Source: a virus (Duplodnaviria > Caudoviricetes). From it: a stretch of DNA of 64,000 nt. The stretch covers positions 167 through 64,166 of IMG/VR virus record IMGVR_UViG_3300030390_001134; one strand, written 5' to 3'. Numbering within the stretch: position 1 is the stretch's first letter; each line of letters starts with the position of its first letter. Below the pieces are notes generated by a model. It was not told the DNA's origin. It did not search any database and saw only the letters and a list, made by a program, of their open reading frames with translations. This document shows positions 2,789 through 51,845 of this stretch, piece after piece. The translations under genes were made by a program, and so were the position numbers.

Positions 2789-2794
2789 GATATT

Positions 2795-2824
2795 ATTATC
2801 CATTACTTATCGTGTTTAGTCTGT
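2795..2824 (-). promoter_or_regulatory. class E promoter-like motif, copy 3
   Basis: ACAGACTAAACACGA-TAAGTAA-TGGATAAT, 6 nt, ATG (2788). Confidence 0.75.
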
Positions 2825-27400: not shown

Positions 27401-30400
27401 TGCATCCAACAGAGTATTCGCACCACACTAATCCGGCTTTAGAAAATCAAGCTAAATATTTCTGGGGAGGTAACGTTGCTTCTGGCGGGGGATTATCTGT
27501 GCCTAGTGTTGCCGAAGGAATTAGTGGAGGTTTAATTGCTTTTGATCCGGTCGAAGCTTTAAATGGAAACGGGGCCACTGGCGGAGCCGGGTCATCCAGG
27601 GTCTTCTGGAGAGACTTGGCTGACAAAGGGGACTTTTTTATAGACTTCTCTACGGCGTATACTTTCACGTCATTTATAGGTGAAATAGACTACTCCGGGG
27701 TTTTTAGCGGCCAGGCCAACGCCACGTCTGGTACGGATAATTACTTTAACGGTCCATTTGGAAGTAGCGATGAAGATTACATTTGGGAAGACCTTGGTTC
27801 ATATGATGGAACCAGCGAAAACCTTGAAAACCCTGAGTGGCTAGAAGCTGGCGCTGCGCCAGTTTTCAATGGATCTTTACAAGGAAACGCCTCTAACCTC
27901 GTGCGCAATATAGGTGGTGGTTTGCCTAGCCGAGGTATATGGCATAACAACTCCGGCGATGGTAGCTATATGGATATCTCATGGACCGGTATGGGTGTTG
28001 GTTACGATGGAACCAATGAAGTCGATCAACCTTTTGTTCAGATGCTACAGCAAGTGGTAGGCTCAGAGGTACACAGCAATGCTGCGGGCTTTATTTTAAA
28101 ACTAACAACTCCAGGCACGGTATTTAGGTTTCAAAATGATCCAGACGGTACTGAGTACACTGTGCAAAAAACTACCGTAAACAGCGGCAATGAGTATGCA
28201 TACGACAACCCAGATTTTTGGGAGGCTGGTACAAACCGTACCACAGGCGCTTTTGGTATTAGAAATTCTAGGGTTACAGGTGGTGGCGGTTACGATATTG
28301 GATATAGACACTATCAAGGATGGAACATGCGCCAAAGATGGACTATAGCTGTAACACCTAAAATAGGCTCAAGCAACTCCATAAGTGGTTACAACCCCAT
28401 ACACGGTACAATGGAAGGCGGACCAACAAATACTCACGCAGATTATAGAAGAGCTCTTCATCACGATGCTACAGACAATGACGTTATAGAGATATTAGGT
28501 GCACCTTCTGGTGGTCGCGGAGGTTCTGTTGAAGAATCAGCTATATGGGAAACAGAACCTAAAGAAGCTGCTGAGTTGGATATATACTACCAAGCTAGTG
28601 GCTTAAACCCTATTCGTTTATCAGAAGAAACTAACGAGGAGTTTATACCTATTGGATCTACTTTTTCAGACGTAGGCCAGGAGCAGTCAGGTCAAACATA
28701 CAAGGTGACAAGTTGGGAAAACGGAAATACGTTTAACTTCACACCGAATATAGTGCCACAAGGCGTTACTCCAGCTGGCACAACAATTACGTTTACAAAG
28801 CCAAACGGCGCCGCTGTTACCGCTGCTATAACAACGGCAATATCTACTACCATATCTGCTATAGAGCTTCATGGAGGTCTTGCTACAGATGATGCCAGTC
28901 AAAAACTATATACTCAAACTCATACGTTAAACTGGAGCAACTGCTGGATGTTTGGTAACGGAGTAGAGTCAGATAGGATTCGTGATGATTTCAACGAAGT
29001 ACAATTAGATAACGGTGTTAAAGCATCCAGTACTATAAGTGGCATATCTAAGCAAGAGCGAAGAAAGCACGGGCTTATATGGTCTGGTATATACAACTCC
29101 GCGTCTGGAATTAATGATACTAATCAGTTTATTATGGCTGAGAAGATCACTAAAGATATTAATCCAATATACGGTAGTATACAAAAGCTATACAACAGAA
29201 ACACTAGGTTGCTAATGTTCTGTGAAGATAAAATTCTAAGAGCTGTTACAAATAAAGACGCGTTATACAACGCCGATGGAAACCCTCAGCTTGTGGCAAG
29301 TAACGCGGTTATAGGTGATGTAACGTCGTACCAAGGAGAGTACGGTATATCTACAGACGCGGCTTCTTTCGCAGAAACACCATACGCTATATATTTCGCC
29401 GACAGCGCAAGGGCGCAGGTTTTAAGACTAACAACAGAGGGTGTAGTATCTATATCAGACAAAGGTATGAGAGACTACTTTGCAGACTACATGTCTAAGG
29501 ATGTTGCAAAAGTTGTAGGTAGTTATGACGAGCGTAGCAAGGAATACAACCTAACTATCTCTAAGCAATTTACTGGCTCTAATTCAGGTCAACCAACATC
29601 TCAGACTACTACGTCTTACAGCGATATATCGGGTGGGTGGAGTAGCTTTAAAAGCTTCTACCCACAAAATGGTATTAGCATAAACAGTACTTACTATACT
29701 TTTTTCAATGGGCATATTTGGGAGCACTATCACAAAGACGCGGCTTACAATACTTTCTACGGCTCGCATGGAAGCTCAGACCACAGTAGTGTGACTTTAA
29801 TAGTAAACGATAGCCCAGGTTCAGTAAAAAGTTTTGGCGCTATAAACTACGAAGGTTCGCAAGCTAAAGTATCTGAATTTTCTACAACATCTGTAAAGAT
29901 GTTTAATAACAACTACGCGGCTACTGCTGGTGGAGCGAGCTCAGGGTTAGCGCCCACAACAAATGTTGTTGATGGTGAGTATCACAATCTTACAGCGAGC
30001 AAAGGTTGGTACGCAGATAATATAACTACCGATCTACAGACTAGCGGTAATATAGAATTTAAAGAAAAAGAAGGTAAATGGTTTGGTTACCCTAGCGGAG
30101 AAACAACCTCTCTTACCAACTTAAACGAAAAAGAGTTTACGGTACAAGGTTTAGGTACCGCATCTATCACTCACGATGACGCAAGTTGGGGAGCTAGAAT
30201 ATCAATCTCTATAGAAAACAATGACGACCCTTTGTTTAACGCTGGTACTAACGATGGAACAAACGTATGGGACGGTGGTAGCGACATTGCAAGGCTTCGC
30301 CATATTGCGTCTGTTTCAACAGGTGTCTTTGAGGCTCAAGCGGGTGTTCTTGAAAGCCACAACGTTGTTTTTGAAATAACTAATAATTTAGATGATAACA

Positions 30401-32370
30401 CGTTTCCCATATCTGACCGTCCTTGGAGCGGTTACTATATAGAAGCTAAAAACTTTGTTGTTGGAAATGGTAACTTAGCGGCTTCGTTTCCGAGTATCTA
30501 TATCTGGAATGGATCAGGTACTAATTGGAATGTTAATCCGAAAATAAATACTGTGACTTTCACCGACACCGGTACTCCAGGTGATGCTAATAACACGGTT
30601 CTAGTTACATGCAGTATACCTGCTACTTCGTTCTCAGCAACAGAAACCTTATATATAGACATTGATATAAATGAGGATGACCCTCCGTCTAATACACTAA
30701 CAAACGATTTTGCAATCCAAGCTGGGTTCATCGATGTTGCAGCAGACACACATGCTACCACCTCTGACTACACTGTGACTAACGTTGGGACGAGCCCGTT
30801 TGTTTACACTAATTTTACAGGTACAGCTGTTGGGAACGCACCTGTAGAGGTTGCTAAAATTGTTTTTACTGCAAATTCAGGGCAAAGATATATACCTACT
30901 AATACGATCGTCGACTTTGGCCCATTTAATACTGTGGATGGGTTAATAGATGATCTATATACTCACACTGCCGGAGAGTTTGTTACTGATGCAAATGGTA
31001 ATGTAACTTCTTTTACTGTAAGAATATTTCATAATAACGTTTCACTATCTTCTCAAGGCACGGATCCAGCTATTTATGGGCACTCAGTGTTTATAACTAG
31101 AGATGTTCAAGAGATATACGTAGAGCCAGCTGAGCCGACGCTTGCTTTGTACACGGCATCGTGGGTTAATTCAGATCAATATTACGACCCTGCTACAGAT
31201 ACATTTGAAATAGCATATGTAGCAAATAATAGCTGGATACCTATAAATGTTTCTGGTTCAGGGAATACACCTTATAGAGTATCACTGCAAAAGAAAACTG
31301 GACTGCACTCTATTACTACAGCCGCGACAAACGGGTATTATAATTTTGAAACTCACGAGTTCCAAACAGCGCCTTGTAACTTTAGTGCTACAACTAATAC
31401 CCTTGGAAGCGCTACGCATCAAGTTTATTTTCCTTCGGTTTCGGATGCTACAAGATATGATTTAGTTTTTTCAAATGAGCTAACTTACGTTGGTGGCAAT
31501 GTAACGTTTGGCAATAGTGTCCCAACAGCAGCTGGAGACGCTATAATAACAAACTGTGGAACCGAGACTCTTACAGTTAACCCTGTAGTTTACGAATCCG
31601 CAAACTTTGGAGTAATACCTGACGATTTAGAATTTATTAAAGTATCTGACTGCACTACGGGTGGTGGTGAAATTTCCAATGTGGAAGTTCACGGCGTTGG
31701 AGGTACTGCAGGCGTGTCTTCTGACAGGCTTGTGTTAAACTTAGCTTCAACTTCAATATTCCCTGGTATGATAGTTACCGCAAGCGGGGTGGCACATAAC
31801 ACTACTGTTTTATCTATTAGTGAAAAAGCCGTAACCTTAAGTGCTGCTGCTACCGTAGCTAATAACACAGATATATTGTTTACTAAAAACAGTGTAAGTT
31901 TACTTCCTTTTAGTTTTACTATACCGCCAAATGGCAGTGGAGATGCCTTGAGTGTTAATGCTGCTGGGATAGCAAACCCAAACAGTGTTGGTGGGTTACG
32001 CGCAAGGAAACAAACTATAAACGGTACGGCGGCTAAAACAATAACCCACACATTGGACTCCACCAAAGGCGTGGTTCCAGGTATGGCAATCACCGGAGCG
32101 GAGGTTAAAGTAGCAAGCGGTACGAATTTAACTGTGGCTAGTGTAACTAACGGCACGGTTATCGTGTTAAGTGAACCTCAAAGCTTCCTTGATAACGCTG
32201 CTCTTAAATTTTCAGGAGGCAACAGCGATTCCTCGTTGGTAAATCTACATAGTATACAAGCTAATAAAATAGGTAGTAACATAGTCGTATCTGGATATAT
32301 TAACGCGCTTAAGATAGCCTCCACAGCGCGCGTAGATATATACTTAGATGACATAATAGATACAGCATAA
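24439..32370 (+). CDS. large tail stabilization/nozzle protein (2643 aa)
   Basis: RMNKDVDERLL..GEYRDA.N N-terminus, FSYRYKY.DGEYS, NRLIYGNY, GNGVESDRIRDDFN, KEKEGKWF; many inserted beta domains. Confidence 0.7.
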   Translation: MAELKRNFLGARMNKDVDERLLKPGEYRDANNIEISTSEGSDVGTVQTIKGNTKRETMASGTGVYGVPDTATCVGSIADKETDKIYYFLSGGDRNDSLELPSLRKNYILEYDTVLESHKYVFVDIFEVNTTCGELTEGNSYIYIPAPDQTGSSNFNTTGVRIGMTLTTTGGYNENDEIKVTDIKYETLSPYGVSFPVFKITLSKALTAFNIPVNAAVKFISGSVLRFKRDRLITGVNILDGFIYWTDDFSEPKKINIKRSIMGTGGTKYLVGGSITGGISDTATANSYNLFTGDTEHFHTRLVIKGESTNPNTNHIVVTNPAGNEAVYVKEDHITVIKKAPTQPLDLEMYRSVTPRLDNSGAEASVTGFVSGFNFHVDGELLTTSSEPITFELSEARDFRKDDILTFSSPGSSTTGSYSEWQVKVKVTSGVAQSAIGYNPVTEITGQILNISKDIASTQDQWNVKRETGDTLFEFKFPRFSYRYKYQDGEYSTFAPFSQVAFLPDVFDYATKQGYNLGMINQLKSLKLKGYFGNSDIRPRDISEIDILYKETNNPTVYVLRTLTANSKGDLNAWPDLLTSPNARGEVTVNSDNIYSVVPSNQLLRPWDNVPLFAKSQEISANRLIYGNYVQNFNVPKEPKITFNLLIDGASDADWQNAGPSIKSLRDYSIGVVYSDDYGRETPVLFDTPKSIKTLKENSSTRNRFQVSLSDDVPPPSWAKYFSYYIKETSTEYYNLVMDRWYDAGDGNVWLSFPSAERNKIDEDTYIKLKKKHGSNTTSTERARYKVLSIENEAPDAVKKNRVIVGTLFNSGFIGNSEEGYPLQGFTYFMVQATNFNASIDIGVLQNASETSVRFGGAGLVSNHYEIVSVTTVNDKYRIELKTPIGPDAAFASASDTFASAIQDLYVEFFEMKTENKAEFDGRFFVKINSDQALRSEVLFSNDTSQRTIIDSKALRYLNNNGYVTETMYTGPKTIRHLENGYSGTRDLHPTEYSHHTNPALENQAKYFWGGNVASGGGLSVPSVAEGISGGLIAFDPVEALNGNGATGGAGSSRVFWRDLADKGDFFIDFSTAYTFTSFIGEIDYSGVFSGQANATSGTDNYFNGPFGSSDEDYIWEDLGSYDGTSENLENPEWLEAGAAPVFNGSLQGNASNLVRNIGGGLPSRGIWHNNSGDGSYMDISWTGMGVGYDGTNEVDQPFVQMLQQVVGSEVHSNAAGFILKLTTPGTVFRFQNDPDGTEYTVQKTTVNSGNEYAYDNPDFWEAGTNRTTGAFGIRNSRVTGGGGYDIGYRHYQGWNMRQRWTIAVTPKIGSSNSISGYNPIHGTMEGGPTNTHADYRRALHHDATDNDVIEILGAPSGGRGGSVEESAIWETEPKEAAELDIYYQASGLNPIRLSEETNEEFIPIGSTFSDVGQEQSGQTYKVTSWENGNTFNFTPNIVPQGVTPAGTTITFTKPNGAAVTAAITTAISTTISAIELHGGLATDDASQKLYTQTHTLNWSNCWMFGNGVESDRIRDDFNEVQLDNGVKASSTISGISKQERRKHGLIWSGIYNSASGINDTNQFIMAEKITKDINPIYGSIQKLYNRNTRLLMFCEDKILRAVTNKDALYNADGNPQLVASNAVIGDVTSYQGEYGISTDAASFAETPYAIYFADSARAQVLRLTTEGVVSISDKGMRDYFADYMSKDVAKVVGSYDERSKEYNLTISKQFTGSNSGQPTSQTTTSYSDISGGWSSFKSFYPQNGISINSTYYTFFNGHIWEHYHKDAAYNTFYGSHGSSDHSSVTLIVNDSPGSVKSFGAINYEGSQAKVSEFSTTSVKMFNNNYAATAGGASSGLAPTTNVVDGEYHNLTASKGWYADNITTDLQTSGNIEFKEKEGKWFGYPSGETTSLTNLNEKEFTVQGLGTASITHDDASWGARISISIENNDDPLFNAGTNDGTNVWDGGSDIARLRHIASVSTGVFEAQAGVLESHNVVFEITNNLDDNTFPISDRPWSGYYIEAKNFVVGNGNLAASFPSIYIWNGSGTNWNVNPKINTVTFTDTGTPGDANNTVLVTCSIPATSFSATETLYIDIDINEDDPPSNTLTNDFAIQAGFIDVAADTHATTSDYTVTNVGTSPFVYTNFTGTAVGNAPVEVAKIVFTANSGQRYIPTNTIVDFGPFNTVDGLIDDLYTHTAGEFVTDANGNVTSFTVRIFHNNVSLSSQGTDPAIYGHSVFITRDVQEIYVEPAEPTLALYTASWVNSDQYYDPATDTFEIAYVANNSWIPINVSGSGNTPYRVSLQKKTGLHSITTAATNGYYNFETHEFQTAPCNFSATTNTLGSATHQVYFPSVSDATRYDLVFSNELTYVGGNVTFGNSVPTAAGDAIITNCGTETLTVNPVVYESANFGVIPDDLEFIKVSDCTTGGGEISNVEVHGVGGTAGVSSDRLVLNLASTSIFPGMIVTASGVAHNTTVLSISEKAVTLSAAATVANNTDILFTKNSVSLLPFSFTIPPNGSGDALSVNAAGIANPNSVGGLRARKQTINGTAAKTITHTLDSTKGVVPGMAITGAEVKVASGTNLTVASVTNGTVIVLSEPQSFLDNAALKFSGGNSDSSLVNLHSIQANKIGSNIVVSGYINALKIASTARVDIYLDDIIDTA

Positions 32371-32371
32371 T

Positions 32372-32737
32372 ATGCCAAGCGTAACATTAACATTTTCAGC
32401 TCCGCTAAACACCTCTTGTCAAGTAGGTGATTTAGCATATTACGTAACCACTCAAGACTTAGGTGGTTTTAAAACAAATGATGGTGACGTTGCTTTAATT
32501 GGTGAGATCCGTCAGATTACTAACCCAGCCAGTAGCTCACCTACTATTATATGTGAAACAACAGTTGGTTATCTCACCCTTAACGGTAAAAACAAGTTTA
32601 TATTGTTTAGTAAAGACAACAAGGCAAACCTAAGTTCTATACTAGGTTATCATGCTAGTGTCAAGCTAGTCAATGATTCTACTGTAGCTTCAGAGCTGTT
32701 TAGTGTAGGTATGGACATGTTTGAAAGTAGTAAATAA
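32372..32737 (+). CDS. putative tail structural protein
   Basis: N.SCQVGD.AYY, FSKDNKANLSSILGY. Confidence 0.6.
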   Translation: MPSVTLTFSAPLNTSCQVGDLAYYVTTQDLGGFKTNDGDVALIGEIRQITNPASSSPTIICETTVGYLTLNGKNKFILFSKDNKANLSSILGYHASVKLVNDSTVASELFSVGMDMFESSK

Positions 32738-34823: not shown

Positions 34824-37800
34824 ATGAACGGACAGCAACAAGGTTACCCAGAAGAGTTACAGATTGTCGTAGATAAAATGAAGGCTAATAGAGAGCCTCA
34901 GTTTAATATTGACATTATGGTACAGAGCTACTACGCATCTAAACAGGATGCAGGCTCAGGGCCAGAGCCGACACCGGTAGCTGGTCAACAAGAAGTAGAG
35001 GAGAACGTTGGTATTCCAAAAGAATCATCTATTGACCAAGAGTGGTGGGACAATGCTGGACTAGATAGGAGCTCTTACTTTGACGAGCAAGGTAATATGT
35101 TACCACCTCCTAGTGTTCTTACAACGGTTGATCCCGGTTGGGATCAGATACGTTTAGAAGAAGAGAACGCTATCAAAGCTCAAGCTGCTTTAGAAAGCGC
35201 TGAAAGCTACGACTCAACAGATATAAGCGAAGGTGAGGGTGATAGTGAGTATAGCACTCAAAGCATTGTTGAAGACAGTGTAGCTACGGAGGAGCAGAGG
35301 AAAGAGAACATAGAAAAAGCCTCTGCTGACTATCAAGAGTTTATTGATGCATCCTTTGCTTATAACTCTATAACAGACGAAGACAAAGCTAGAGAAGCTG
35401 ATCTTGTATCTAAATGGGAGAAAGACGGTTTAGCTATGGTGATGGGCGAAATACCCACTATAAATTATTTCGGTCTTGGTAGTGGAAACATGTTAACTGT
35501 TGACAACTACGTTGCATACAAGCGTCGCAGGGCTAGAAACCCAGAAAGCATGGACTTTGATCCTACGTTACCTAGTTACATAGAGGTTAAGCACAACGAA
35601 TATGAATCTAACCCCACGTTTAGAGATGCAAAAATAAATATTGCGAAAAGCGAATATGCTAAAAAGGCAGGGTTAAGCGAGAGTGAAACAAAAAAGCTGC
35701 TTAAGGCTAACATTGATCCAGCTAATGCAGAGTCTATGGAGCCTTTTTCTACTTTTGACGAGGATGGAAATGTAGTTTCTTTTGAGAATGAGTACAAGAA
35801 CATAGACCCAAACCAATCTGGTAGGATTTTATCTGATGGATCTAAGCTAGGTGACAAGTTACGTAAGGGTGTTGAGGATAAATTAACTGCTCAGAATGAC
35901 GCTGAAAGTCAGAGGGCTAACGTGAAAAAGTTTGTTGAAGCATTACCATCGTACTCAAAGACGTCTGCTACTGGTGCGGTAGTAAAAGCTGCAACAGGGT
36001 TGGATCTTGGATTGTTTTTAAAGAGTGATGCGCAGAAACTAATTGAAAAGCGAGCTAAAGAGGATTTTAAGTTATTAGAAAGCAACGTGCAAAAAATAGC
36101 TTCTGAAGCAGACGTAGTAGGTTCTCAGATCAAAAACAACGGTGCTCTTTTAACTAAAGCCCATGAAGATCTAAAAGCGCTGGGTGATGTTCGGGCTAAG
36201 ATAAATGAGTTAAAAAACGGGGAGTATACTACTGAGGCCCAGGTTAAAAACGCTAATCAAAAAATAAGCGCGCTGGTAAATGACTACACAGCTAAGTTTA
36301 ACGCGTTTGATAAATACAGAAAAGCTAACAGCACTTTAAATAACGCAGCTGCAAGGATTGGAGCGGAGATAAAGGATCTAGACGTGAAGGTAAAAGACCT
36401 AGGCGCGTTTACAGAGTTTATTGGGGATAATCATCAGATAGGTACACAAATGGCTTGGTCTGCTGCAAACGCTGCTATAGACCTTGGTCAAGGCTTTATG
36501 GACTTTGCATATATGGCTAATCCTTTTGGCGCTTTATCTGACGAGTTGATTGATTGGGCTGGTGAAGACTCTCTTGCAGCATCTATAGTGGAAGGAGTTA
36601 GGATAGCAGCTGCACCTATGACAGGAGGTTTAAGTTTATACTCAGGGGACAGGAGGGACGATATGCGAGATGCTATAGATAATTTTCAAGAAAACGTATC
36701 GTCTAAAATTGAACAGCCACCTGCGTTTAGTAGTATAAAAGATGTAGGTAGCTTTGCTGAGTGGGCAGCTGTAACAGGTATTGCTCAAGCGCCTCAATTA
36801 GCTTTAATGTATGCCAGTGGCGGTACGTCTGGTTTACTTTTAATGGGTGCCGGTGCAGCTGGAACGAAGTACAACGAGATGGAAGAGAACCGCGAGACCT
36901 ACAGAGAGTCTGGTGGGTTATATGGTATAGATCACTCTTTCGCCAGCATGCTTGCCGTATCAACGTTTACAGGTGCTGTTGAGGCATTGTCTGAGAAAGT
37001 TACACTAGGACAGCTTAATGCTGCGGGTAGAACTTTGAAAAACGAAGTGTTTAAAGCAAGTGGCAGAAGAGGCATTGCGAAGTATTTAAGAAACGACGTG
37101 TTTACTAAGGATTCTTTTAGATCAACTCTTCGAGGGGGAAAAGACTTGTTTGAGGAAGGCGGCTCAGAGTTCCTAGCAACCGTAGGCGGTAACGCTTTAA
37201 CTATAGCATCAGGGGATAAATCTGTAGGGCTTTGGGATGGCGGTCTTGAGTCGTTTGTTACAGGAGCTATGATAAGTTCTACTATTAAAACACCTTCTTT
37301 ATTCAGGTCCGCCGTAGCTCCTTTCCAGTCTAAGACAACTTCAGAGATCTTAAACAATAATCTTGATATTATTGAAAGGAACCGTGCTGTTGCTTCTGGA
37401 GAGACCGGGGCTTCAGCCGATGCGGTGCAGTTTGCTCAAGATATTATAGCTGAAGCTGTTCACGAAAATAAGTTGGCCTTAGAGTTAGACATTAAAAGGG
37501 TGGACGCGTACGAAGACGCTGATAAGTCTAGGCTGATAAATATAGAATCAGATAACATAGATCTTCGCCGTAAGGCAACCGCTATAGTTCAAGATGAAAC
37601 ATTAGATGAGTCTCAGAAAAAAGAGATGATTAATGATCTTCAGACAAAGCTTGATAATAATATTGCTGAGAAGCAAGCTATTATAGAAAAATACCCTGAA
37701 GATGTAGTTAATAAAAAGTACAGTGAGACATCATTAGGCCGTCAACCCGCATCTCAAACATTTGAAGAGAATATAGAATTCGCTAAAAAGCATAGCGCTT

Positions 37801-40800
37801 TGTATGGGTTAGAGGTTAACGACACTATGAGCCCTGCGGAAATAGAAGCTTACTTATTAAAGAAAGGGTATTCTGAAAAGGATGCAAAGGATGGTAGAAA
37901 ATCGGATGGGTTTATTGTTGGAGATGATATAATAATAAACAGAGAGGTTGCAATGGCTAAGAACGCCGTCACTGTCGGTAGCCACGAGTTATTGCATGGT
38001 ATACTTAGAAAAGCAATGGGCGATAAAGCTCTTTCAACTCAAGTTATATCGCAGCTAAAAAAATCTATTGGTAGCCAATGGTCTGTAGTTCAACAGAGAA
38101 TAGACGAGAACTACACTCCTGAGTACATGGCTTTAAATCCAGACGAGTACTTAACTCTTGTCTCGGATGCTATAGCTAAAGGAGAGATTACTTATCAAGA
38201 GACTGTATTTGACAAGCTAAGAGATTCTCTTAACGAGATACCTATATTTAAAAAGTACTTCCCTAATATTAAATTCAAAACAGGTAGAGACGTATACCGT
38301 TTCTTAAGAGAGTATAATAAAAGCATACACAAAGGCGCACTAGCGACTGACATTGTAAAAGCAACGCAGACCGATGAGGATGTTGAAAGAACCGAAGACC
38401 AAGTTAAAAAAGATGGTATAAAGAAATCTCTAACTTCAGACCAGAAGAAAGCCGCTGCTAAAAATGTTAAAGAACTAGGAGCTAAAGAAACAAATAAGTC
38501 TTGGAGAAGAGGTGGTGCAGATGCTGCTATAAAAGATATAAAAGACAACGGTTACTTTGACGCTCTTATAGCTTCTAAGTATAAAGTTAAACCTGTACCT
38601 AGAGATTTTGTTGAAAAGGTTTACTCTGAGATAACGCCACATATTAAGAGGTTTAAGCCAGAGCAGAACGACAACCTATTTGCTTACATAAATAGTCAGA
38701 TAGGAAACAAAGCTGGTAACGTATATAACAAGGAGTATAAGGTTGATGAGGCTATGCGTGGATCGAAAGACATCGACGCTAAGACTTCTGAGGGCGCTCC
38801 GGTAATTCAAGTGGCAGCGGAGACTGACACTGATGTAACGTCATTTGAAGAGCAAGACATGTCTATGCAAGCTCAAGCTAAAAGAACAAAATTAGCTGAG
38901 CAAGGTAAGTCTGAATCAGATAGGTACTCTGGTCTTAGAACTGAACTAGGTTTAGAAAAACCTATGATGGATAAAGTACGTCAGGCTGTCATGAAGACAT
39001 TCGGTACAAAGTTACCTGATGTAAACTCTAAGAAGTTTAAAGCCGCATTACAGAAAGCTTATAGAACTGAGCTAAAGAAACCTATCCAAGATATGATAGG
39101 TAAAGGCGCTACGTACGAAACTTTCTTAGCGGAAAACTTTCCTACTGTATTTAAGTTTCTGCCAAAAGAAACGTTACTTCAGATGGAGCGTAACGTAGCT
39201 CCTGAGAATAGAATATTTACTAAGTCAGAGAGAATAACTAAACCCACAGAAGTTGACAAGTTGATTAGTGACGGTTTACTACCTAAAGAAACTAATAGAC
39301 TATCTGGCCCAACTCTAATCACCAAACTACCTTACCCTGGTTCTAAAAAAGTTATGGCTTATTTTAGAGGCCAGAACATGGATAACGCTCTTGGGTATAA
39401 GGTAGGTGCATCTACGCTTGGCACTAGGAAAGATAAGCTAGCTATGGAAATGGGTGTCGAACTTGGGTTTGATGCGACTATGGAGACCGTGCAACAGCCT
39501 GAGGTAGCTGAACGAAGAGAGAGCATATTAGAATTAACGGGTCAAGTACAAGCTGAAAACGACGTATCGGTTATGGCTAAGCAAATCGATAGGGACCCAA
39601 ACATTAAGTTTAGTAATACCAGTAACAAGTCCCCAAGCGATATATTCGCGGATCAAACTATGTCTTTAGTTAAAGACGTTGTTAACAATGGGTTTGAGAC
39701 AGTTTTTACTGAAGATGGTAAACTTGTTGAGGGTTATCCCGGTGACTTTAGTAAAAAAGCTGTTGACTTTGCTTACAACTTGTGGGATGACGGAACGTTG
39801 CATGACGGTAAGAGTATAGGTTTTAAGGCTAAAGTTGCTTTAAGTGAAAGTTTTTCTAACGAAATCAAAGAAACTTACAAGAGCGATGGTAACCTAAGAA
39901 ACAACGAAGCTGCGTTAGATAGATTATACGAAGCTGTTTCTGTGCTAACAACAAAGCTAGGACCAGAAGTTATGGACGCTATAGGTTTTGAAATCGCTGG
40001 TTTCAAAAACAGGGTCATGGACTCTCCTAAGCTTAAAAGAGACGGAACTCCTGGACGGTTTTACGAGCGCCTTCAAAAGCTATCTAAAAGAGTCAGGGAA
40101 AGTGTAGGTGCTTCACTTCCTTTTGGATTAGATTTAAAAGGCGTTTCTATAATGAACAAAAACGCTGGAGCAAAAAGCATATTTGGTAAGGTACAGAAAA
40201 TACTAAACGAAGATATAACGCGAGATGCTAAGCTTGTAAAGCTTGCTGAGTTACAACCTGAGATAGATGCCGCAAACGAAGCTAATATAAAGTTAGCTAA
40301 ACATATATCAACTGTTTTAATTAATGGTGTTAGAGATGGCTCTATTGATCAGGTTTCAGCGCTACACTTATTGCAAGCACAAACAGGTATTGTTAACGGG
40401 TTTAGAGGTTTATCTAGGTTAGATTTAATAACAGTTTTAGATGGGTCTCAAAAACCTGGAGAAACACACCCGCACTATAAGAGGATATATAGAGAGCTGT
40501 CTAAAACAATGCCTAAAGACCAAGCTAAGATAGAGGCTATTAAACGTACTGGAACAAAAGGCGAGCACTTAGCCCCAAACTCTAACACCATGTTTGAGAT
40601 AGCTGAGTTATTCAACAGCAGCGAAACAGCTACTGAACTAGAAAACAAGCTTACTAATATATTTAGAGGTCACTCTCAAATGCACACTACCATAGACCTA
40701 ACAAAGGTTATGGACAAAAAGGGAGGTGAGACTAACGATACAGACTTTAACAGAGTTAAATTCTTAGACCAAGTAGATATTAACTCAACTGTTAGGGCGG

Positions 40801-43800
40801 ATGGAAAGAGCTTCATAGAGGTTCTTGCTGAAGTTGAAATAGCTAAAGAGGTTTCAAAGATGAACCTAGCTATAGATCAAAGAAACGAGAGCACTAAGCT
40901 TATGGACCAAGCTATTAAAGCATCTCGCTCTAGCACTAAGCCTAAAGGTATAACAGTGTTAGACTTTGATGACACGTTGGCTACAACTAAGTCTAATGTT
41001 ATAGTCACACCTCCAGACCCCGCAACTATCCCTGGTAAACGCCGCACAAAGAAAAGCAAAATCTCCGATGAGTATGCGGTGACTCCGGGCAAGGATAAGT
41101 TTTATAAGAGTGATTCTTATTTAGACCCAGCTCCTGTAGATCCTGCCCCAGCACCTGGTTCAAGAGAACTAAAGGATATAATAGGCAAGGACCTATCAGT
41201 AGGTGGGACTTTTTATGCCGCTAAACCTTTTAAACTGAGTGCTGAAGAGTTTGCTAAGCACGGTAGCGAGTTGCTAGCGCAAGGGTATAAGTTTGATTTT
41301 TCTGAATTCAACAAGGTTGTTGACGGCAAGACGGCGCCATTATTTAACAAAGCTATGAAGCTTTCTGGAAAGTTCGGAACAGAGAACATGTTTATCCTTA
41401 CAGCTAGAGCGCCTCAATCAGCAAAAGCTATTAAACAGTTTTTAGATGCGCAAGGTTTAAAGATACCTCTTAAAAATATTACAGGTCTAGGTAAGTCAGA
41501 AGCTTCGGCTAAAGCTAACTGGATAGCGGAGAAAGTGGGTGAGGGTTACAATGACTTTTACTTTGCTGACGACGCTATGCAAAACGTCAAGGCGGTTAAG
41601 GATATGCTTGATCAGTTTGATGTAAAAGGTAAAGTTCAACAAGCGAGATTAAAGTTTAGTAATTCTGGCCCTAAGAAGATGTCTGATATAATAGACGAAA
41701 GTCAATTAGACCTTAATAAGATACTAGAGGAAACTAAAGGTGTAGGTAAAGACAAAAGATTCTCAGCTGCAAAAGCTAGGCAGCGTGGTAAGAACAAAGG
41801 TAAGTTTAAGTTCTTTGTTCCACCTTCAGCAGATGACTTTGCTGGGTTGATGTATTCGTTTATGGGTAGAGGTAAGCAAGGTAATAAGCACCACGCGTGG
41901 TTTAAGGAAAACCTATTCGACCCGTTCTCAAAAGGCATGAGACGCCACAAGATGGTTCAGCAGCAGGTGGCCAATGATATGAAAAACCTTAGAAAGGCTA
42001 TGCCTGACGTAAGGAAGAAGCTAGGTAAAAAAGTACCTGGCACAGAGTACACACACGAGGATGCTATAAGAATATACAACTGGAGCCAAGCGGGTCTTGA
42101 TATACCTGGGTTATCTCAAGCTGACGCTACAGCTTTGATAAACGCGATTGAGTCTGATCCTAAGCTTCAAGCATTTGCACAAGGTGTTAATTCTATAAGT
42201 GAAACTCCGGGTGGCATGGTAGAACCTGGTCCTCACTGGACAGGAGGTAATATAGCTTTAGATTTAAAAGAAGCGTTAGACAACGCTAGGGGTAATAACC
42301 TTAGGCAATGGGTGGAGAATAAAAATATTATATTCTCTGAAGCTAACATGAATAAGATAGAAGCTTTGTATGGCTCTAACTTTAGAGAAGCGTTAGAAGA
42401 CAGTCTATACCGTATGGAAACTGGTAGCACGCAGAACGTGGGTAAAGATAGGTTGTTAAATAACTTTACAGCTTGGATACACGGTTCTATAGGTACTACT
42501 ATGTTCTTGAATGCTAGGTCAGCCATGTTGCAGATGATCTCTAATGTTAACTTTGTTAACTGGAGTGATAACAATATGCTTAAAGCTGCTGGTGCATTTG
42601 CTAATCAAAAGCAGTATTGGAAAGACGTGTCTATGATATTCAACTCTCCTTTCTTAAAGCAAAGAAGATCTGGTATTCAGACAGATGTTAACGCAGCTGA
42701 GCTTCTAGCTCAAATCAAGGATTCTAAAAACAAAATGAAAGCAGCTGTAGCTTACTTGCTACAACTTGGTTTTACCCCTACACAGATTGCGGATAGTTTA
42801 GCCATCGCAACAGGTGGCGCTACGTTTTACAGGAACAGAATTAAGACATACCTAAAAGATGGTATGTCCCAGGTTGATGCTGAAACAAAAGCCTTTGAGG
42901 ATATGATGGAGATAGCGGAGGAAACTCAGCAATCCACTAGAGCAGATAAAATATCTCAGCAGCAAGCTTCTCCTATTGGTAAGTTTATACTAGCTTTCCA
43001 GAATACACCTATGCAGTATAACAGGTTGATTAAAAAAGCGGCGCAAGATCTAGTCAATGGTAGGGGTGACGTAAAAGCTAACGTATCTAGGATTGTTTAC
43101 TACGGTGGTATTCAAAACTTAATATTCTATGGGTTGCAAACCGCGTTGTTTGCAGCTTTATTCAGCGATGACGAAGAGGACGAAATAACGGCTAAAAAAA
43201 CAGAAAGAGTCATGAACGGCATGGTTGATACCTTGCTACGTGGCTCAGGCATCGCTGGCGCCGCTGTGTCAACTGTTAAAAATGTTATTCTAAAGTTCAT
43301 GAAGGAGAGCGAAAAGATGAATGACGATAAGTACTATACGGATCCTGACTGGGGCAATGTAGTTATAGAGGGTCTTAATATATCTCCGCCTATAGGTATT
43401 AAGGCTAGAAAAATTTATAGCGGCCTTAAAACATGGGAGTACAATAAAGATGTCATAGATCACATGAGTAAGACAGATCTAGATAATCCTATATACGATG
43501 CTATTTCTAGTGTAACAGAGGCAGCAACTAACGTGCCTTTAAGTAGAGCTTACAGTAAGTATCAAAACATATCAGAGGCACTGAACGCAGAGCATGAGGC
43601 GTGGAAAAGAATAGCTATGCTATTGGGTTGGAACAAATGGAGTTTTGGAATTAAAAACCAAGATGTAGTTACAGCTAAAAGCGAGGTTAAAGAAATAAAA
43701 GCTGAAGAGGCTGAGGAGAGAAAGGAGATGAAGAAGCTTGCCAAAGAAGTTGAAAAGCAAGCTGAAAACGAGGTTATTGAAGAAGACAACTTGTTAGATC

Positions 43801-44033
43801 AGCGAGAAGAAAGAGAGCAAAGTCAAGAAGATATAAAATGTGCGGCGGTTACCAGCTCAGGAAAGCGCTGTGGTAAGAAAGTTAAAGGTGACGGAAACTA
43901 CTGTACTATACACGAAACCGTTGAGGCAAGAAAGGATGGTAAAAAAATACAGTGCGCTCACATTAAGCCAGATGGTAAAAGGTGTAAAATGAAAACAACA
44001 AATAAATCAGGTAAATGCTACTATCACGATTAA
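34824..44033 (+). CDS. giant internal virion (polyvalent) protein: zincin, sigma-region-2-like, HAD phosphatase, C-terminal CCCH fingers
   Basis: HELLH at ~aa 1054; VLDFDDTL/ILTAR/FADD HAD motifs from ~aa 2047; FQNTPMQY helical C-terminal domain; two terminal CCCH repeats. Confidence 0.75.
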   Translation: MNGQQQGYPEELQIVVDKMKANREPQFNIDIMVQSYYASKQDAGSGPEPTPVAGQQEVEENVGIPKESSIDQEWWDNAGLDRSSYFDEQGNMLPPPSVLTTVDPGWDQIRLEEENAIKAQAALESAESYDSTDISEGEGDSEYSTQSIVEDSVATEEQRKENIEKASADYQEFIDASFAYNSITDEDKAREADLVSKWEKDGLAMVMGEIPTINYFGLGSGNMLTVDNYVAYKRRRARNPESMDFDPTLPSYIEVKHNEYESNPTFRDAKINIAKSEYAKKAGLSESETKKLLKANIDPANAESMEPFSTFDEDGNVVSFENEYKNIDPNQSGRILSDGSKLGDKLRKGVEDKLTAQNDAESQRANVKKFVEALPSYSKTSATGAVVKAATGLDLGLFLKSDAQKLIEKRAKEDFKLLESNVQKIASEADVVGSQIKNNGALLTKAHEDLKALGDVRAKINELKNGEYTTEAQVKNANQKISALVNDYTAKFNAFDKYRKANSTLNNAAARIGAEIKDLDVKVKDLGAFTEFIGDNHQIGTQMAWSAANAAIDLGQGFMDFAYMANPFGALSDELIDWAGEDSLAASIVEGVRIAAAPMTGGLSLYSGDRRDDMRDAIDNFQENVSSKIEQPPAFSSIKDVGSFAEWAAVTGIAQAPQLALMYASGGTSGLLLMGAGAAGTKYNEMEENRETYRESGGLYGIDHSFASMLAVSTFTGAVEALSEKVTLGQLNAAGRTLKNEVFKASGRRGIAKYLRNDVFTKDSFRSTLRGGKDLFEEGGSEFLATVGGNALTIASGDKSVGLWDGGLESFVTGAMISSTIKTPSLFRSAVAPFQSKTTSEILNNNLDIIERNRAVASGETGASADAVQFAQDIIAEAVHENKLALELDIKRVDAYEDADKSRLINIESDNIDLRRKATAIVQDETLDESQKKEMINDLQTKLDNNIAEKQAIIEKYPEDVVNKKYSETSLGRQPASQTFEENIEFAKKHSALYGLEVNDTMSPAEIEAYLLKKGYSEKDAKDGRKSDGFIVGDDIIINREVAMAKNAVTVGSHELLHGILRKAMGDKALSTQVISQLKKSIGSQWSVVQQRIDENYTPEYMALNPDEYLTLVSDAIAKGEITYQETVFDKLRDSLNEIPIFKKYFPNIKFKTGRDVYRFLREYNKSIHKGALATDIVKATQTDEDVERTEDQVKKDGIKKSLTSDQKKAAAKNVKELGAKETNKSWRRGGADAAIKDIKDNGYFDALIASKYKVKPVPRDFVEKVYSEITPHIKRFKPEQNDNLFAYINSQIGNKAGNVYNKEYKVDEAMRGSKDIDAKTSEGAPVIQVAAETDTDVTSFEEQDMSMQAQAKRTKLAEQGKSESDRYSGLRTELGLEKPMMDKVRQAVMKTFGTKLPDVNSKKFKAALQKAYRTELKKPIQDMIGKGATYETFLAENFPTVFKFLPKETLLQMERNVAPENRIFTKSERITKPTEVDKLISDGLLPKETNRLSGPTLITKLPYPGSKKVMAYFRGQNMDNALGYKVGASTLGTRKDKLAMEMGVELGFDATMETVQQPEVAERRESILELTGQVQAENDVSVMAKQIDRDPNIKFSNTSNKSPSDIFADQTMSLVKDVVNNGFETVFTEDGKLVEGYPGDFSKKAVDFAYNLWDDGTLHDGKSIGFKAKVALSESFSNEIKETYKSDGNLRNNEAALDRLYEAVSVLTTKLGPEVMDAIGFEIAGFKNRVMDSPKLKRDGTPGRFYERLQKLSKRVRESVGASLPFGLDLKGVSIMNKNAGAKSIFGKVQKILNEDITRDAKLVKLAELQPEIDAANEANIKLAKHISTVLINGVRDGSIDQVSALHLLQAQTGIVNGFRGLSRLDLITVLDGSQKPGETHPHYKRIYRELSKTMPKDQAKIEAIKRTGTKGEHLAPNSNTMFEIAELFNSSETATELENKLTNIFRGHSQMHTTIDLTKVMDKKGGETNDTDFNRVKFLDQVDINSTVRADGKSFIEVLAEVEIAKEVSKMNLAIDQRNESTKLMDQAIKASRSSTKPKGITVLDFDDTLATTKSNVIVTPPDPATIPGKRRTKKSKISDEYAVTPGKDKFYKSDSYLDPAPVDPAPAPGSRELKDIIGKDLSVGGTFYAAKPFKLSAEEFAKHGSELLAQGYKFDFSEFNKVVDGKTAPLFNKAMKLSGKFGTENMFILTARAPQSAKAIKQFLDAQGLKIPLKNITGLGKSEASAKANWIAEKVGEGYNDFYFADDAMQNVKAVKDMLDQFDVKGKVQQARLKFSNSGPKKMSDIIDESQLDLNKILEETKGVGKDKRFSAAKARQRGKNKGKFKFFVPPSADDFAGLMYSFMGRGKQGNKHHAWFKENLFDPFSKGMRRHKMVQQQVANDMKNLRKAMPDVRKKLGKKVPGTEYTHEDAIRIYNWSQAGLDIPGLSQADATALINAIESDPKLQAFAQGVNSISETPGGMVEPGPHWTGGNIALDLKEALDNARGNNLRQWVENKNIIFSEANMNKIEALYGSNFREALEDSLYRMETGSTQNVGKDRLLNNFTAWIHGSIGTTMFLNARSAMLQMISNVNFVNWSDNNMLKAAGAFANQKQYWKDVSMIFNSPFLKQRRSGIQTDVNAAELLAQIKDSKNKMKAAVAYLLQLGFTPTQIADSLAIATGGATFYRNRIKTYLKDGMSQVDAETKAFEDMMEIAEETQQSTRADKISQQQASPIGKFILAFQNTPMQYNRLIKKAAQDLVNGRGDVKANVSRIVYYGGIQNLIFYGLQTALFAALFSDDEEDEITAKKTERVMNGMVDTLLRGSGIAGAAVSTVKNVILKFMKESEKMNDDKYYTDPDWGNVVIEGLNISPPIGIKARKIYSGLKTWEYNKDVIDHMSKTDLDNPIYDAISSVTEAATNVPLSRAYSKYQNISEALNAEHEAWKRIAMLLGWNKWSFGIKNQDVVTAKSEVKEIKAEEAEERKEMKKLAKEVEKQAENEVIEEDNLLDQREEREQSQEDIKCAAVTSSGKRCGKKVKGDGNYCTIHETVEARKDGKKIQCAHIKPDGKRCKMKTTNKSGKCYYHD

Positions 44034-46283: not shown

Positions 46284-48422
46284 ATGAAGAGTTTTTTATT
46301 ATGTTTATTTTTAATACCACTAACGTTTCTAACTCAAGAGAGTTGGGTTAACGTAGTTGTACAAACAGATCAGTATGGAGGTGAGACGACTTGGGAGATA
46401 TATCAAGATAGTCAACTAGTAGCGGTATCACCGCCTTACCAAAACAATTCTTACAACGAAACCTTAGTTGAGTTACCCGTTGGGCAATACAACTTAGTTG
46501 TGTACGACGCTTTTGGTGATGGTATATGCTGTGACTTTGGACCTGGTTATTTTGGTTTAACAAACTCTTGTGGATTAGATACGTTTGTATATGACTTTAA
46601 CACTCCGCAGGCTACTGTATTTTTTGAGCTAACAGAATGTGAGCAACCTGTATATGGGTGTTTACAGCCTAACGCTTTAAACTACAATCCATGGGCTAAC
46701 ACCCCAACGCCGTGTAACTTTCCGCCAATGCCATGTGGTGAGGGTCAGACAAACATACTTTCGTTTTTCACACCTGATAGTTACCCAGCAGAAACAAGTT
46801 GGGAGATAACTGTTAACGGTGACTCGCTAACGTCTGGTGGTGGTGGTACAACTGGTATAACTGAACCCACGTATCACTGCGTGAACGAGGGTGATACAGT
46901 TGTAGCTAGTATATACGATTTATATGGAGATGGTATGTGTGGTACTTGTTGGGGTGGAGTAGATGGGTTTTTTAACGTAACAACACTATGTGGGGATAGT
47001 ATATTTATGGCTGGTGGTACAATGGAGTTTGATACATTATACTCAGAGCCCTATGTAGTACAACCTTGTGCGCCCGCGTTCTTAACAGGATGTACAGATA
47101 GTTTGTTTGTAGAGTATAGCCCTAATGCACAGGTTAACGATGGAAGTTGTGTGACTGAGATAGCTTTAGGTTGTATACAAGAAGATGCTCTAAACTACGA
47201 TCCACTAGCTAACACTATGGAAACAGAAAGCATGTGTAGTTATGATCTCGTTATAACAGATGGCGGGGCTGACGGGTGGTTTGGTAGTTGGCTAGGGTTT
47301 ACACAAGGTGGTAACTTGTATGGTCCATATCAAATGGGACCTGACGACGGGTATGAAGAAACGTTTGAGGTAGCTTTAAACTCTAATGAAGAGGTTAAGG
47401 TTTACTTCTTTACAGAAGGTAACGCGGAAACTACAGCTGCTCAGTGTGGGTTTAGATTAGAAGGTCCTAACGGTATTATAGCTCAGAGTGGAACTAACCC
47501 TTGGACAGATAGGTTGAAAAAATTTCCGTTCTCTTACAGTGCTACGCCTACATGTTCTAACTACTGCATTGCTCCGGTACTTGGTTGTGTTGACGTTGAA
47601 GCTTGTAACTTTGATACCTTAGCAAACGTAGACCACGGATGTGTCTACCCTATAGAATACTACGACTGTGATAACCTGTGTAACAGTGATATAGATAACG
47701 ACGGTGTGTGTGACGAGCTAGAGATAGTGGGTTGCATGGATCAAACCGCTTTTAATTATAATGAGTTAGCTACAGATCCAGCTGACTGTGAACCACTAAT
47801 ATTCGGATGTACAGATGCCACGCAGTATAACTATAACCCAGAAGCTAACACGGACAACGGTAGCTGTATTCCTTACATTGACGGTTGTACTGATAGCAAT
47901 GCCTTTAATTATGATCCGCTGGCTACTGCTGACAACGGCTCGTGTATTGAAATCGTGGAAGGGTGTGCCGATCTTCAAGCGTACAACTACGAAGTCCTAG
48001 TTAATATACCAGACCCAGAGTCTTGTTTATACGAAGCTGTAGGTTGTGTCACCGGTTTAGGTGAGCCATATGGAGATGGTTATTGGCTCAACGATATGTG
48101 CTTCGCTTGGTTGATTCAAGCTGACCCATATTGCTGCGAAGAGGAGTGGGATAACACATGTCAAGAGACATTTGATTACTGCTCCGCTACTGGTATAGAA
48201 GCTATACTAGCTAGAGATGATTTAGTGATGTACCCTAACCCAGTTGGTAACGTACTTAACATAAATAAAAACGTTGATCTAGACGTGTTCGATTCTGCAG
48301 GACGTGTTATCGTATCTAAAACAAATATAAACGCGATAGACGCATCTCTATGGGATCCAGGGATGTACACAGTGCGGATTGTTTGGAACAACCGAATTGT
48401 AATCAAAAAGATTATTAAATAA
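46284..48422 (+). CDS. secreted Cys-rich repeat protein with a T9SS type A C-terminal sorting domain
   Basis: Signal peptide; repeated D..GDG modules and GC.D..A.NY.P.A..D.GSC repeats; CTD MYPNPVGNVLNI...GMYTVRI...KKIIK (48228-48422). Confidence 0.85.
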   Translation: MKSFLLCLFLIPLTFLTQESWVNVVVQTDQYGGETTWEIYQDSQLVAVSPPYQNNSYNETLVELPVGQYNLVVYDAFGDGICCDFGPGYFGLTNSCGLDTFVYDFNTPQATVFFELTECEQPVYGCLQPNALNYNPWANTPTPCNFPPMPCGEGQTNILSFFTPDSYPAETSWEITVNGDSLTSGGGGTTGITEPTYHCVNEGDTVVASIYDLYGDGMCGTCWGGVDGFFNVTTLCGDSIFMAGGTMEFDTLYSEPYVVQPCAPAFLTGCTDSLFVEYSPNAQVNDGSCVTEIALGCIQEDALNYDPLANTMETESMCSYDLVITDGGADGWFGSWLGFTQGGNLYGPYQMGPDDGYEETFEVALNSNEEVKVYFFTEGNAETTAAQCGFRLEGPNGIIAQSGTNPWTDRLKKFPFSYSATPTCSNYCIAPVLGCVDVEACNFDTLANVDHGCVYPIEYYDCDNLCNSDIDNDGVCDELEIVGCMDQTAFNYNELATDPADCEPLIFGCTDATQYNYNPEANTDNGSCIPYIDGCTDSNAFNYDPLATADNGSCIEIVEGCADLQAYNYEVLVNIPDPESCLYEAVGCVTGLGEPYGDGYWLNDMCFAWLIQADPYCCEEEWDNTCQETFDYCSATGIEAILARDDLVMYPNPVGNVLNINKNVDLDVFDSAGRVIVSKTNINAIDASLWDPGMYTVRIVWNNRIVIKKIIK

Positions 48423-51489: not shown

Positions 51490-51845
51490 AGTACATATTC
51501 GCATTAATATTATCAATGACTTTTACTGGTTTATTCAGCCAGTGTAACCAACACGTATTCACCTCAGTAGGTGCCACAGAGTGGACGAGCTTTGAATACG
51601 TAGATTGTGATGGAGAAGATCACGCTTTTGGTTTACCTGCAGGAGGATATACTATAATATTCTGCGCAGACATAGGTACAGCTTTTGCTTTAAACGGAGA
51701 TGGGTTTGTATATCCATTAATGACAGAGCATCCTAACTACGCATCATGTGCGCAACCTGTTTGTCAGGGGGACTTCGATGAGGATGGTGTAGTGGGAGTA
51801 AGCGATTTACAAGTGTTTTTATCAAACTACGGAGCATGCGATTAA
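51486..51845 (+). CDS. secreted protein with a C-terminal dockerin/EF-hand-like motif
   Basis: Signal peptide ..GLFS|Q; CQGDFDEDGVVGVSDLQVFLSNYG. Confidence 0.7.
   Translation: MKYIFALILSMTFTGLFSQCNQHVFTSVGATEWTSFEYVDCDGEDHAFGLPAGGYTIIFCADIGTAFALNGDGFVYPLMTEHPNYASCAQPVCQGDFDEDGVVGVSDLQVFLSNYGACD

Follow-up and report, generated by a model that had tools for sequence, protein, structure and literature searches.

The window analysed here, a stretch of 64,000 nucleotides that is nearly the entire 64,166-bp single-contig virus record IMGVR_UViG_3300030390_001134 (completeness estimate 98%), carries an open reading frame (ORF) of 3069 amino acids (aa), termed P0001, which belongs to a mosaic family of giant phage proteins. 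The exchangeable segments of these proteins end at a short border motif, which lies almost exclusively downstream of a zincin-like metallopeptidase domain. We interpret P0001 as an ejection polyprotein in which the cassettes are set apart by processing sites that its own zincin may cut, and we give this interpretation an even chance of being correct. An earlier note on this DNA, covering positions 37983-41663 (residues 1054-2280 of P0001), had proposed such self-processing at [IL]K-x-S motifs, and every string that it listed, namely, HELLH, GIKKSL, NIKFSN, AIKASR, DFDDT and RLKFSN, is found where the note had placed it.

As a whole protein, P0001 gives nothing useful in Pfam or PHROGs, has no sequence relative in the Protein Data Bank (PDB) and, when searched as halves with tblastn, has no match among 50,697 deposited phage records. 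Its relatives come from metagenomes, where 823 of 7999 scored candidates reach E<=0.001, and from 185,579 species genomes, where the giant family occupies only 23 loci, all of them on contigs of metagenome-assembled genomes and none in an isolate genome. BLAST of P0001 against the best 120 of these relatives delimited six modules, M0 to M5, which have independent distributions (Table 1). The coverage of P0001 in this comparison breaks at the four border motifs listed in the earlier note, with a sharp fall at residue 1594, and relatives P0003, P0004, P0008 and P0012 have extra cassettes inserted exactly at the sites of the query, with those of P0003, P0004 and P0012 falling precisely at site 2276.

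The motif itself had to be redefined. The pattern [IL]KxS occurs in P0001 at residues 1078, 1199, 1594, 2031, 2276 and 2631, that is, six times versus 2.7 expected from composition, and is not above chance. Comparison with relatives shows that the earlier note had nevertheless picked the right four of these six. The occurrences at 1078 and 2631 were discarded as fortuitous, with no strict and no loose site in 111 and 146 aligned relatives, respectively, and so was a possible fifth site at the M0/M1 border (SYSK, residue 376), with a motif in 1/40 aligned relatives. At the four remaining positions the relatives have IKFSK, ISFSR, MFSKR, AQFSR and similar residues, and therefore the conserved border motif, as read from these alignments, is [ILVM]-x-F-S-[KR] (strict motif) and not [IL]K-x-S.

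To measure its enrichment we used 182 proteins, of which 121 came from databases and 61 were complete giant ORFs taken from 78 viral loci; 149 of the 182 were kept as a non-redundant set after 33 had been dropped as more than 50% k-mer-redundant. The strict motif is present 278 times in these 149 relatives, against 34.0 expected from shuffles, and at least two copies are found in 88 of them, whereas permuted or substituted control patterns stay near expectation (28 vs 34.8, 11 vs 35.1, 26 vs 32.2 and 94 vs 63.9). The 278 sites represent 104 contexts at no more than 40% flank identity, with almost no information beyond the five core positions. At 73 sites, the Ser codons come from both families (AGY 63%, TCN 37%), and therefore selection acts on the protein rather than on a DNA junction. 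For the same reason, it is very improbable that cassette exchange left the motif behind as a neutral scar or as a recombination junction at the DNA level. Such exchange is certainly frequent, and the insertion in P0012 is flanked by a duplicated junction, but a scar would not be expected to show an 8-fold enrichment with controls at expectation, nor to be kept in 104 unrelated contexts whose flanks are free to vary. The P0012 insertion, at about residues 2461-2710, consists of a ~210-aa cassette after the phosphatase, flanked by two junction copies (...QQA[KR]-IKFS[MK]), and looks like a duplication of the last helix plus the motif.

An invariant Ser preceded by Phe also recalls the HFS sites of Nup98 and PIDD, which self-cleave by an N-to-O acyl shift. 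Sites of this type need a dedicated surrounding fold and a conserved His before the Phe. In the giant proteins, by contrast, the residue before the Phe varies (K, M, S, Q, L) and the 104 contexts have unrelated flanks; we give protease-free self-cleavage at the Phe-Ser bond almost no weight.

The position of the motif is as distinctive as its composition. First, the 149 proteins give 51,154 internal BLAST alignment ends, of which 20.6% fall within 15 aa of a loose site, versus 3.7% for random positions; strict sites give 13.1% and 2.3%, respectively. Homology between giant proteins typically stops 0-5 residues past the motif Phe. Second, cutting the proteins in silico after strict sites yields 419 segments that group into 111 clusters, including 76 singletons; lengths within a cluster are tight (e.g. 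374-383, 215-218 or 545-552 aa), and the order of the segments is shuffled from protein to protein. Homology breaks, insertions at the sites and shuffled order together bear out the motif-bounded swapping of cassettes that alignment of homologs had been proposed to reveal. Third, the five residues on either side of the sites are polar-rich, with bulky hydrophobic residues at a frequency of 0.16-0.17 compared with a background of 0.30. Fourth, in proteins with a zincin defined by a hidden Markov model (HMM), a single strict site lies upstream of HExxH (in 112,297 aa), whereas the downstream part has 247 (in 243,526 aa), the first site being ~140-180 or ~510-540 residues after HExxH.

For each of the four sites of P0001, Table 1 gives the non-redundant relatives aligned over it and their classification as strict, loose or any [FY]S; at site 1199, for instance, relatives have ITYSM, AQFSR, IAFSR and similar residues. 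Their structural setting was obtained from two AlphaFold2 models, covering residues 904-1209 (34-row alignment, mean predicted local distance difference test score, pLDDT, of 81.2) and residues 1150-2330 (86-row alignment, mean pLDDT 77.0). Both models place site 1199 within a stretch of pLDDT<50. Site 1594 is predicted to lie in a coil of 13 residues that separates helices (pLDDT ~56), and site 2276 directly past the last strand of the HAD domain, where it opens a stretch of pLDDT<50 (residues 2277-2295). Site 2031 precedes the first HAD strand by six residues. Parsing the models into domains thus places all four sites at domain borders, as anticipated, and three of the four in clear linkers, with site 2031 falling instead at the end of a helix.

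The protease that could act on these sites is the zincin-like domain at the end of M1. Residues N1039, H1054, E1055, H1058 and E1108 are invariant in 34/34 aligned sequences, E1108 being the putative downstream Glu ligand. The zincin HMM matches 121/149 relatives, and HExxH is kept in 24 of the other 28 (145/149 in total). The domain-wide fold matches are best for M34 zincins, namely, PPEP-3 (Foldseek E 0.37, prob 0.90) and lethal factor/Certhrax, the latter with Z of 4.6-5.3 and a root-mean-square deviation (rmsd) of ~5 Å over model residues 71-246 (VIA). A wide VIA search with the zincin model was dominated by the N-terminal helical hairpin and was uninformative on the protease part, while Pfam matches of the zincin members to Peptidase_M78 (5/34) and SprT-like (4/34) and all rows of the PDB profile search with the zincin alignment were sub-threshold. 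The identification of a zincin therefore stands on the invariant HExxH+E, the fold match being weak. M34 zincins, namely, Pro-Pro endopeptidases and anthrax lethal factor, are sequence-specific endopeptidases that read linear motifs. Like the domain of P0001, they have HExxH and a Glu ~50 residues downstream; they differ in that there is no sequence-level match between them and the query zincin, and the fold likeness is below significance. The weak M34/lethal-factor resemblance does agree with the link to lethal factor drawn for polyvalent-protein zincins in the text available of Iyer, Burroughs, Anand, de Souza and Aravind 2017 (PMC5512222). A predicted complex between the zincin core and a 42-residue peptide over site 1594 scored 0.02 versus a mark of 0.32, which counts neither for nor against recognition.

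Taken as a mechanism, this reading would make P0001 the large ejection (cargo) protein of a podophage, 64 kb in size and crAss-like, that infects marine Flavobacteriia. An N-terminal body (residues 1-1203) ending in the zincin would be followed by exchangeable effector cassettes, in this phage M2, M3 and a 3'-phosphatase of the type found in T4 polynucleotide kinase-phosphatase (Pnkp), and then by M5. Each cassette would close with a short polar linker bearing [ILVM]-x-F-S-[K/R], and the protein's own zincin would recognize these linkers as sites of endoproteolytic processing. Because zincins usually seat a hydrophobic residue in S1', the cut may, by analogy, fall before the motif Phe. Cutting would turn a single packaged and injected chain into separate ready-made proteins, and a common site code would allow cassettes to be inserted without loss of processing. 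The data establish the mosaic architecture, the motif with its position, selection and polarity, the conserved zincin residues and the phosphatase fold; cleavage, the protease responsible, the scissile bond and the timing, whether in the capsid or post-injection, are inferred.

Several points weigh against this interpretation. The evidence for cleavage is comparative and the family uncultured, and no naturally split genes were found at the sites. The split giant ORFs of four related loci (L039, L076, L064 and L068) had been candidates, but they break inside conserved domains, in the case of L039 within the DxDxT strand, and most likely reflect frameshifts or assembly errors. The motif is not obligatory in giant proteins, because 28/149 relatives lack a strict site, 14 of these having a canonical zincin; by zincin type, the proteins with no site are 14/119 versus 14/30, a comparison in which kinship is not controlled, and zincin divergence versus site loss gives a Spearman coefficient of 0.12 (p 0.14). 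P0001 itself has 0 strict sites, given that 1199 and 2031 are without Phe and that 1594 and 2276 end in Asn. In the model, site 2031 forms the final turn of a helix of 40 residues (model H848-887) with pLDDT ~77, and the fold matches of the zincin (Foldseek E 0.37, Z ~5) are below significance. The polarity could just reflect the confinement of cassettes to the middle of the protein. Finally, the N4 virion RNA polymerase, which has a similar zincin, is packaged unprocessed (PMC5512222, in the text available).

This last observation also favours a reading in which the motif is never cut and serves each module as a docking or handling signal, used, for example, when the protein is packaged or threaded through the portal and tail, or recognized by the chaperonin of the phage. 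The motif is short and its flanks are free, the phage does encode a GroEL-type chaperonin, and one site is modelled as helical. Such a signal nevertheless leaves unexplained why the sites lie exactly at borders and at the C-terminal ends of cassettes, why the N-terminal 1000-1200 aa have none, and why a catalytically intact protease is conserved beside them, and we regard it as fairly unlikely.

It is also conceivable that the motif is cut by another protease, belonging to phage maturation or to the host, and that the zincin acts on host targets or the cell envelope, since what links the zincin with the sites is co-occurrence and polarity only. Maturation protease genes often lie between portal and capsid genes, and a 386-aa gene of no known family occupies this very place in the window. 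On the other hand, a scan of 26 window ORFs revealed no protease family elsewhere, and a general maturation protease should have sites in other virion proteins, whereas outside P0001 the window has only four matches to [ILVM]xFS[KRNM], two of them Asn-ending in a 2643-aa protein and one each in a 121-aa and an 84-aa ORF. Matches ending in K/R are confined, among window ORFs of at least 80 aa, to the latter two (ILFSK in the 121-aa ORF and VVFSR in the 84-aa minus-strand ORF). Likewise, zincins with HExxH+E are typically endopeptidases of proteins or peptides and not wall hydrolases, which argues against a role on the wall or envelope. Digestion of peptidoglycan has been considered for the zincin of crAss gp65 (bioRxiv 10.1101/2020.03.07.982082, in the text available). 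On balance, we find a separate protease quite unlikely, and continue to favour processing by the zincin of P0001.

The best-defined cassette is M4. The motifs of a HAD phosphatase are conserved among relatives, including motif I (D2047 in 78/80, D2049 in 72/81 and T2051 in 71/81), motif III (K2230 in 78/80) and motif IV (D2249 in 72/79 and D2250 in 78/79), and the motif II string ILTAR is seen in the translation. The model of residues 2038-2276 (model range 889-1127) superposes on 5uj0_B with Z 13.9 and rmsd 2.3 Å over 126/142 residues (VIA); Pnkp1 (4xru_A) follows with Z 13.1, T4 Pnk entries with Z 12.4-13.3 and generic HADs with Z 9.4-11.5. Pfam HAD models give no match to the query at E<=1. 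The HAD domain announced by the earlier note is thus confirmed by conserved motifs I, III and IV together with the fold, and its last two border motifs, sites 3 and 4, do bracket the domain exactly. Alignment and model together identify M4 as a HAD phosphatase whose nearest match is the 3'-phosphatase of T4 Pnkp.

M4 shares with T4 Pnkp and bacterial Pnkp1 the 3'-phosphatase fold, the DxDxT motif and the Lys and DD motifs, but, unlike T4 Pnkp, it forms one cassette within a giant protein of the structural module. The same motif-bounded cassette of relatives contains a P-loop kinase, 35-45 residues after HAD motif I. This kinase, found in P0085, P0094, P0028 and P0044 with a GGAGSGKS Walker A and matches to Pfam AAA_33 / Zeta_toxin, sits at the position of the HAD cap, in which it is nested, unlike the N-terminal kinase of T4 Pnkp. 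The query is without a P-loop kinase, and the equivalent place is occupied by a cap insert (residues 2072-2113) that AlphaFold2 predicts to be disordered and that is Pro-rich. The best fold match, together with the nested kinase of the relatives, suggests a polynucleotide 3'-phosphatase activity for M4.

The remaining cassettes were less easily assigned. M2 and M3 were folded only within the 1181-residue AlphaFold2 model. For M2, which the earlier note had called sigma-like, the PDB profile match to sigma factor region 2 (8b3z_A) is sub-threshold (E 0.13 and 0.36), and the Atlas feature scores against sigma-70 clusters are 0.90-0.91 with only 91-114/256 features shared. Sigma-70 region 2 (PF04542) has no match at E<=10 in the whole genome, none of 15 M2 members has a Pfam sigma match at E<=1, and hhalign of the M2 alignment A3 against Escherichia coli RpoE returns a probability of 0.5%. 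These sub-threshold hints, set against negative Pfam and hhalign tests, do not uphold the assignment, and the label may be kept only as a lead. A search of 1.84 billion proteins found 97 representatives of M3 (E<=1e-3), most of them giants of ~2000-4000 aa and some shorter, and the module shows 50 columns that are at least 92% conserved, including H1827, H1882, H1950, D1964, D1985, R1861 and R1977; these conserved His, Asp and Arg columns suggest an enzyme. A Walker-A-like string in M3 (residues 1657-1664) was rejected, since its K is found in 6/14 sequences and there is no strand-loop-helix. A KxDG ligase-like string is also present in M3.

M5 is always the C-terminal segment (119/119), with 68 invariant columns in 46 sequences, and it matched no PDB or Pfam family in a profile search, which remained sub-threshold, or in a Pfam scan of the alignment members. 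The PDB profile search with the A1 alignment gave sub-threshold rows only. Of the fold searches, that of BFVD retrieved family members and small standalone viral proteins only. The C-terminal tail (residues 3006-3069, nucleotides 43839-44030) has Cys/His clusters, with C..C......C..H occurring twice. Its match to DUF5763 is weak (9/46 relatives, best E 4.7e-7), and from its residue pattern this tail may be a zinc ribbon.

The family can be compared with three known systems. First, polyvalent proteins, for which Iyer et al. propose zincin autoprocessing (PMC5512222), share with it a giant multi-domain chain in a mobile element, a zincin hub and mosaic enzyme cassettes, and the background on these proteins given in the earlier note is accurate as far as the available text goes. 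Many unrelated domains in a single chain, with mosaic architectures among relatives, are indeed what we found. The available text of PMC5512222 names no cleavage motif ('linker' has 0 occurrences), and HAD phosphatase, polynucleotide kinase and zeta toxin have 0 occurrences each; the P0001 family differs by its defined motif, its strict polarity and its universal C-terminal module. Pfam LPD domains are not found in the query at E<=1, and relative P0071 has an LPD14 match with E 1.7e-5 and 25.3 bits (cut-off 27).

Second, the virion RNA polymerase gp50 of N4 is likewise a giant ejected protein of ~3000-3500 aa, in which an HExxH domain is combined with a C-terminal part that is large and helical (PMC13434306; PMC5512222, both as far as available), and is likewise encoded alongside two smaller ejection proteins (PMC13434306). 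It differs in having an RNA polymerase module, of which there is none in P0001, and in showing no sequence match to P0001. Third, the crAss-like Cellulophaga phage phi14:2 has a related virion module, with terminase, portal, capsid and GroEL, the chaperonin being at the equivalent relative position (g105). Its gp65-gp66-gp67 block includes a zincin-bearing virion protein and fused 'polyproteins likely cleaved' (bioRxiv 10.1101/2020.03.07.982082, in the text available). BLASTP of P0001 against phi14:2 gp65, gp66 and gp67 gave a best E of 0.003 over 74 residues, the zincin HMM found nothing in them, and the strict motif occurs once in their 5398 aa; the similarity to these proteins is thus not meaningful. 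In the available text of Bayfield et al. 2023 (PMC10172136), the strings proteoly-, cleav- and protease have 0 occurrences, and full-text literature searches, which covered main texts, returned no description of the border motif or of processing of the giant family.

The genomic setting is consistent with a virion protein. The plus strand of the window holds a crAss-like virion module, in which a GroEL-type chaperonin is encoded together with large terminase, portal and capsid-type structural proteins. The terminase shares 63% identity with that of an uncultured Caudoviricetes record and ~45% with those of the listed Flavobacterium 'elemo' phages, with matches in 87 records in all, which include phages of Flavobacterium, Cellulophaga, Tenacibaculum and Maribacter. 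The giant gene comes after terminase, portal, capsid, a muzzle-like gene and two small genes, of 275 and 393 aa, which precede it in the same order in related loci. From this position in the virion module and this synteny, P0001 is presumed to be located in the virion and delivered with the DNA. The arrangement resembles the three ejection proteins of podoviruses T7, P22 and N4, as described in the sources available, and by this analogy we interpret the 275-aa and 393-aa products as smaller ejection or cargo proteins.

The second giant protein of the window, of 2643 aa, has a match to the crAss muzzle C-terminal domain near threshold (25.1 bits versus a cut-off of 27), no PDB sequence relative and no [ILVM]xFS[KR] site. 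The 121-aa ORF just 3' of its gene (32372-32737, plus strand) has ILFSK at residue 77, which may be chance. Two further plus-strand proteins (46284-48422 and 51836-53041) end in type IX secretion sorting domains of Bacteroidota (Por_Secre_tail, E 1e-9, and CHU_C, E 2.2e-14, respectively); these are unusual in virion-module genes and may be receptor-binding or host-derived domains. The polymerase motif DFDxD / D[FY]D[IVG]D is found in no large ORF of the 64,166-bp genome in six frames, the sole hit being a short Asp-rich loop at ~nucleotide 51771; therefore, this crAss-like phage appears to be without a crAss-type virion RNA polymerase.

Table 1. Coordinates of P0001, its modules and border sites, and of selected genes in the window. 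For border sites, the number of non-redundant relatives aligned over the site is followed by those with a strict motif / loose motif / any [FY]S.
Feature	Residues	Nucleotides	Strand	Description
Giant ORF P0001	1-3069	34824..44033	+	Putative polyvalent ejection-type protein, 3069 aa
M0	1-399	34824..36020	+	Variable acidic N-terminal region; 10/120 relatives
M1	400-1203	36021..38432	+	Conserved, Gly/Ala-rich hydrophobic helices, zincin at end; 99/120
M2	1204-1598	38433..39617	+	Helical, acidic disordered loop at residues 1307-1346; 66/120
M3	1599-2035	39618..40928	+	Orphan, conserved His/Asp/Arg/Gln columns; 16/120
M4	2036-2280	40929..41663	+	Predicted HAD-superfamily phosphatase, T4 Pnkp 3'-phosphatase type; 119/120
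M5	2281-3069	41664..44030	+	Universal C-terminal module, hydrophobic segment, Cys/His-rich tail; 120/120
Zincin-like metallopeptidase core	~975-1181	37746..38366	+	HELLH at residues 1054-1058 (nucleotides 37983-37997)
Putative third zinc ligand	E1108	38145-38147	+	Invariant, 34/34
Border site 1, IKKSL	1199-1203	38418..38432	+	Degenerate; 86 aligned: 4 / 13 / 26
Border site 2, IKFSN	1594-1598	39603..39617	+	Near-canonical; 43 aligned: 26 / 31 / 40
Border site 3, IKASR	2031-2035	40914..40928	+	Degenerate; 43 aligned: 9 / 16 / 19
Border site 4, LKFSN	2276-2280	41649..41663	+	Near-canonical; 141 aligned: 92 / 111 / 125
GroEL-type chaperonin		6995-8563	+	PHROG 5725, E 6.7e-133; Pfam Cpn60_TCP1
386-aa gene		19176-20336		No known family; between portal and capsid genes
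Second giant protein		24439-32370	+	2643 aa; PHROG 14478 'virion structural protein'
Two genes upstream of P0001		32796..34808	+	275 aa (N-terminal Gly/Ala hydrophobic helix) and 393 aa

It is tempting to speculate that, in this abundant marine lineage, the virion RNA polymerase of crAss-like and N4-like cousins has been replaced by a self-cutting delivery polyprotein, whose zincin, acting in cis on the linker code, would release at entry a lineage-specific effector set, with Pnkp-type anti-defence modules and possibly a sigma-like factor, although we consider this broader scenario doubtful. If it were true, the Pnkp-type phosphatase and kinase modules would heal RNA ends against RNA-cutting host defences at entry, the possible sigma-like factor would redirect host RNA polymerase to early genes, and the shared code would make the cassettes plug-and-play, which would explain why the segments between sites fall into more than 100 families.

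Zincin processing has already been proposed for polyvalent proteins (PMC5512222), and crAss polyproteins have been called 'likely cleaved' (bioRxiv 10.1101/2020.03.07.982082), as far as the available texts of both sources show. What is new is the family-wide border motif with its strict polarity, the occurrence of a Pnkp-type module in an ejection-type protein, and the account of a large family for which all sources are uncultured. We know of no report of defined sites for the zincin autoprocessing of phage or plasmid polyvalent proteins, an idea put forward in 2017, and a four-residue candidate site that recurs in hundreds of proteins makes it directly testable. The family, modular and so far uncultured, yet large in metagenomes, also shows what injected cargo may consist of; its clearest example, an end-healing module of the Pnkp type, suggests that host systems which cut RNA are countered at entry.

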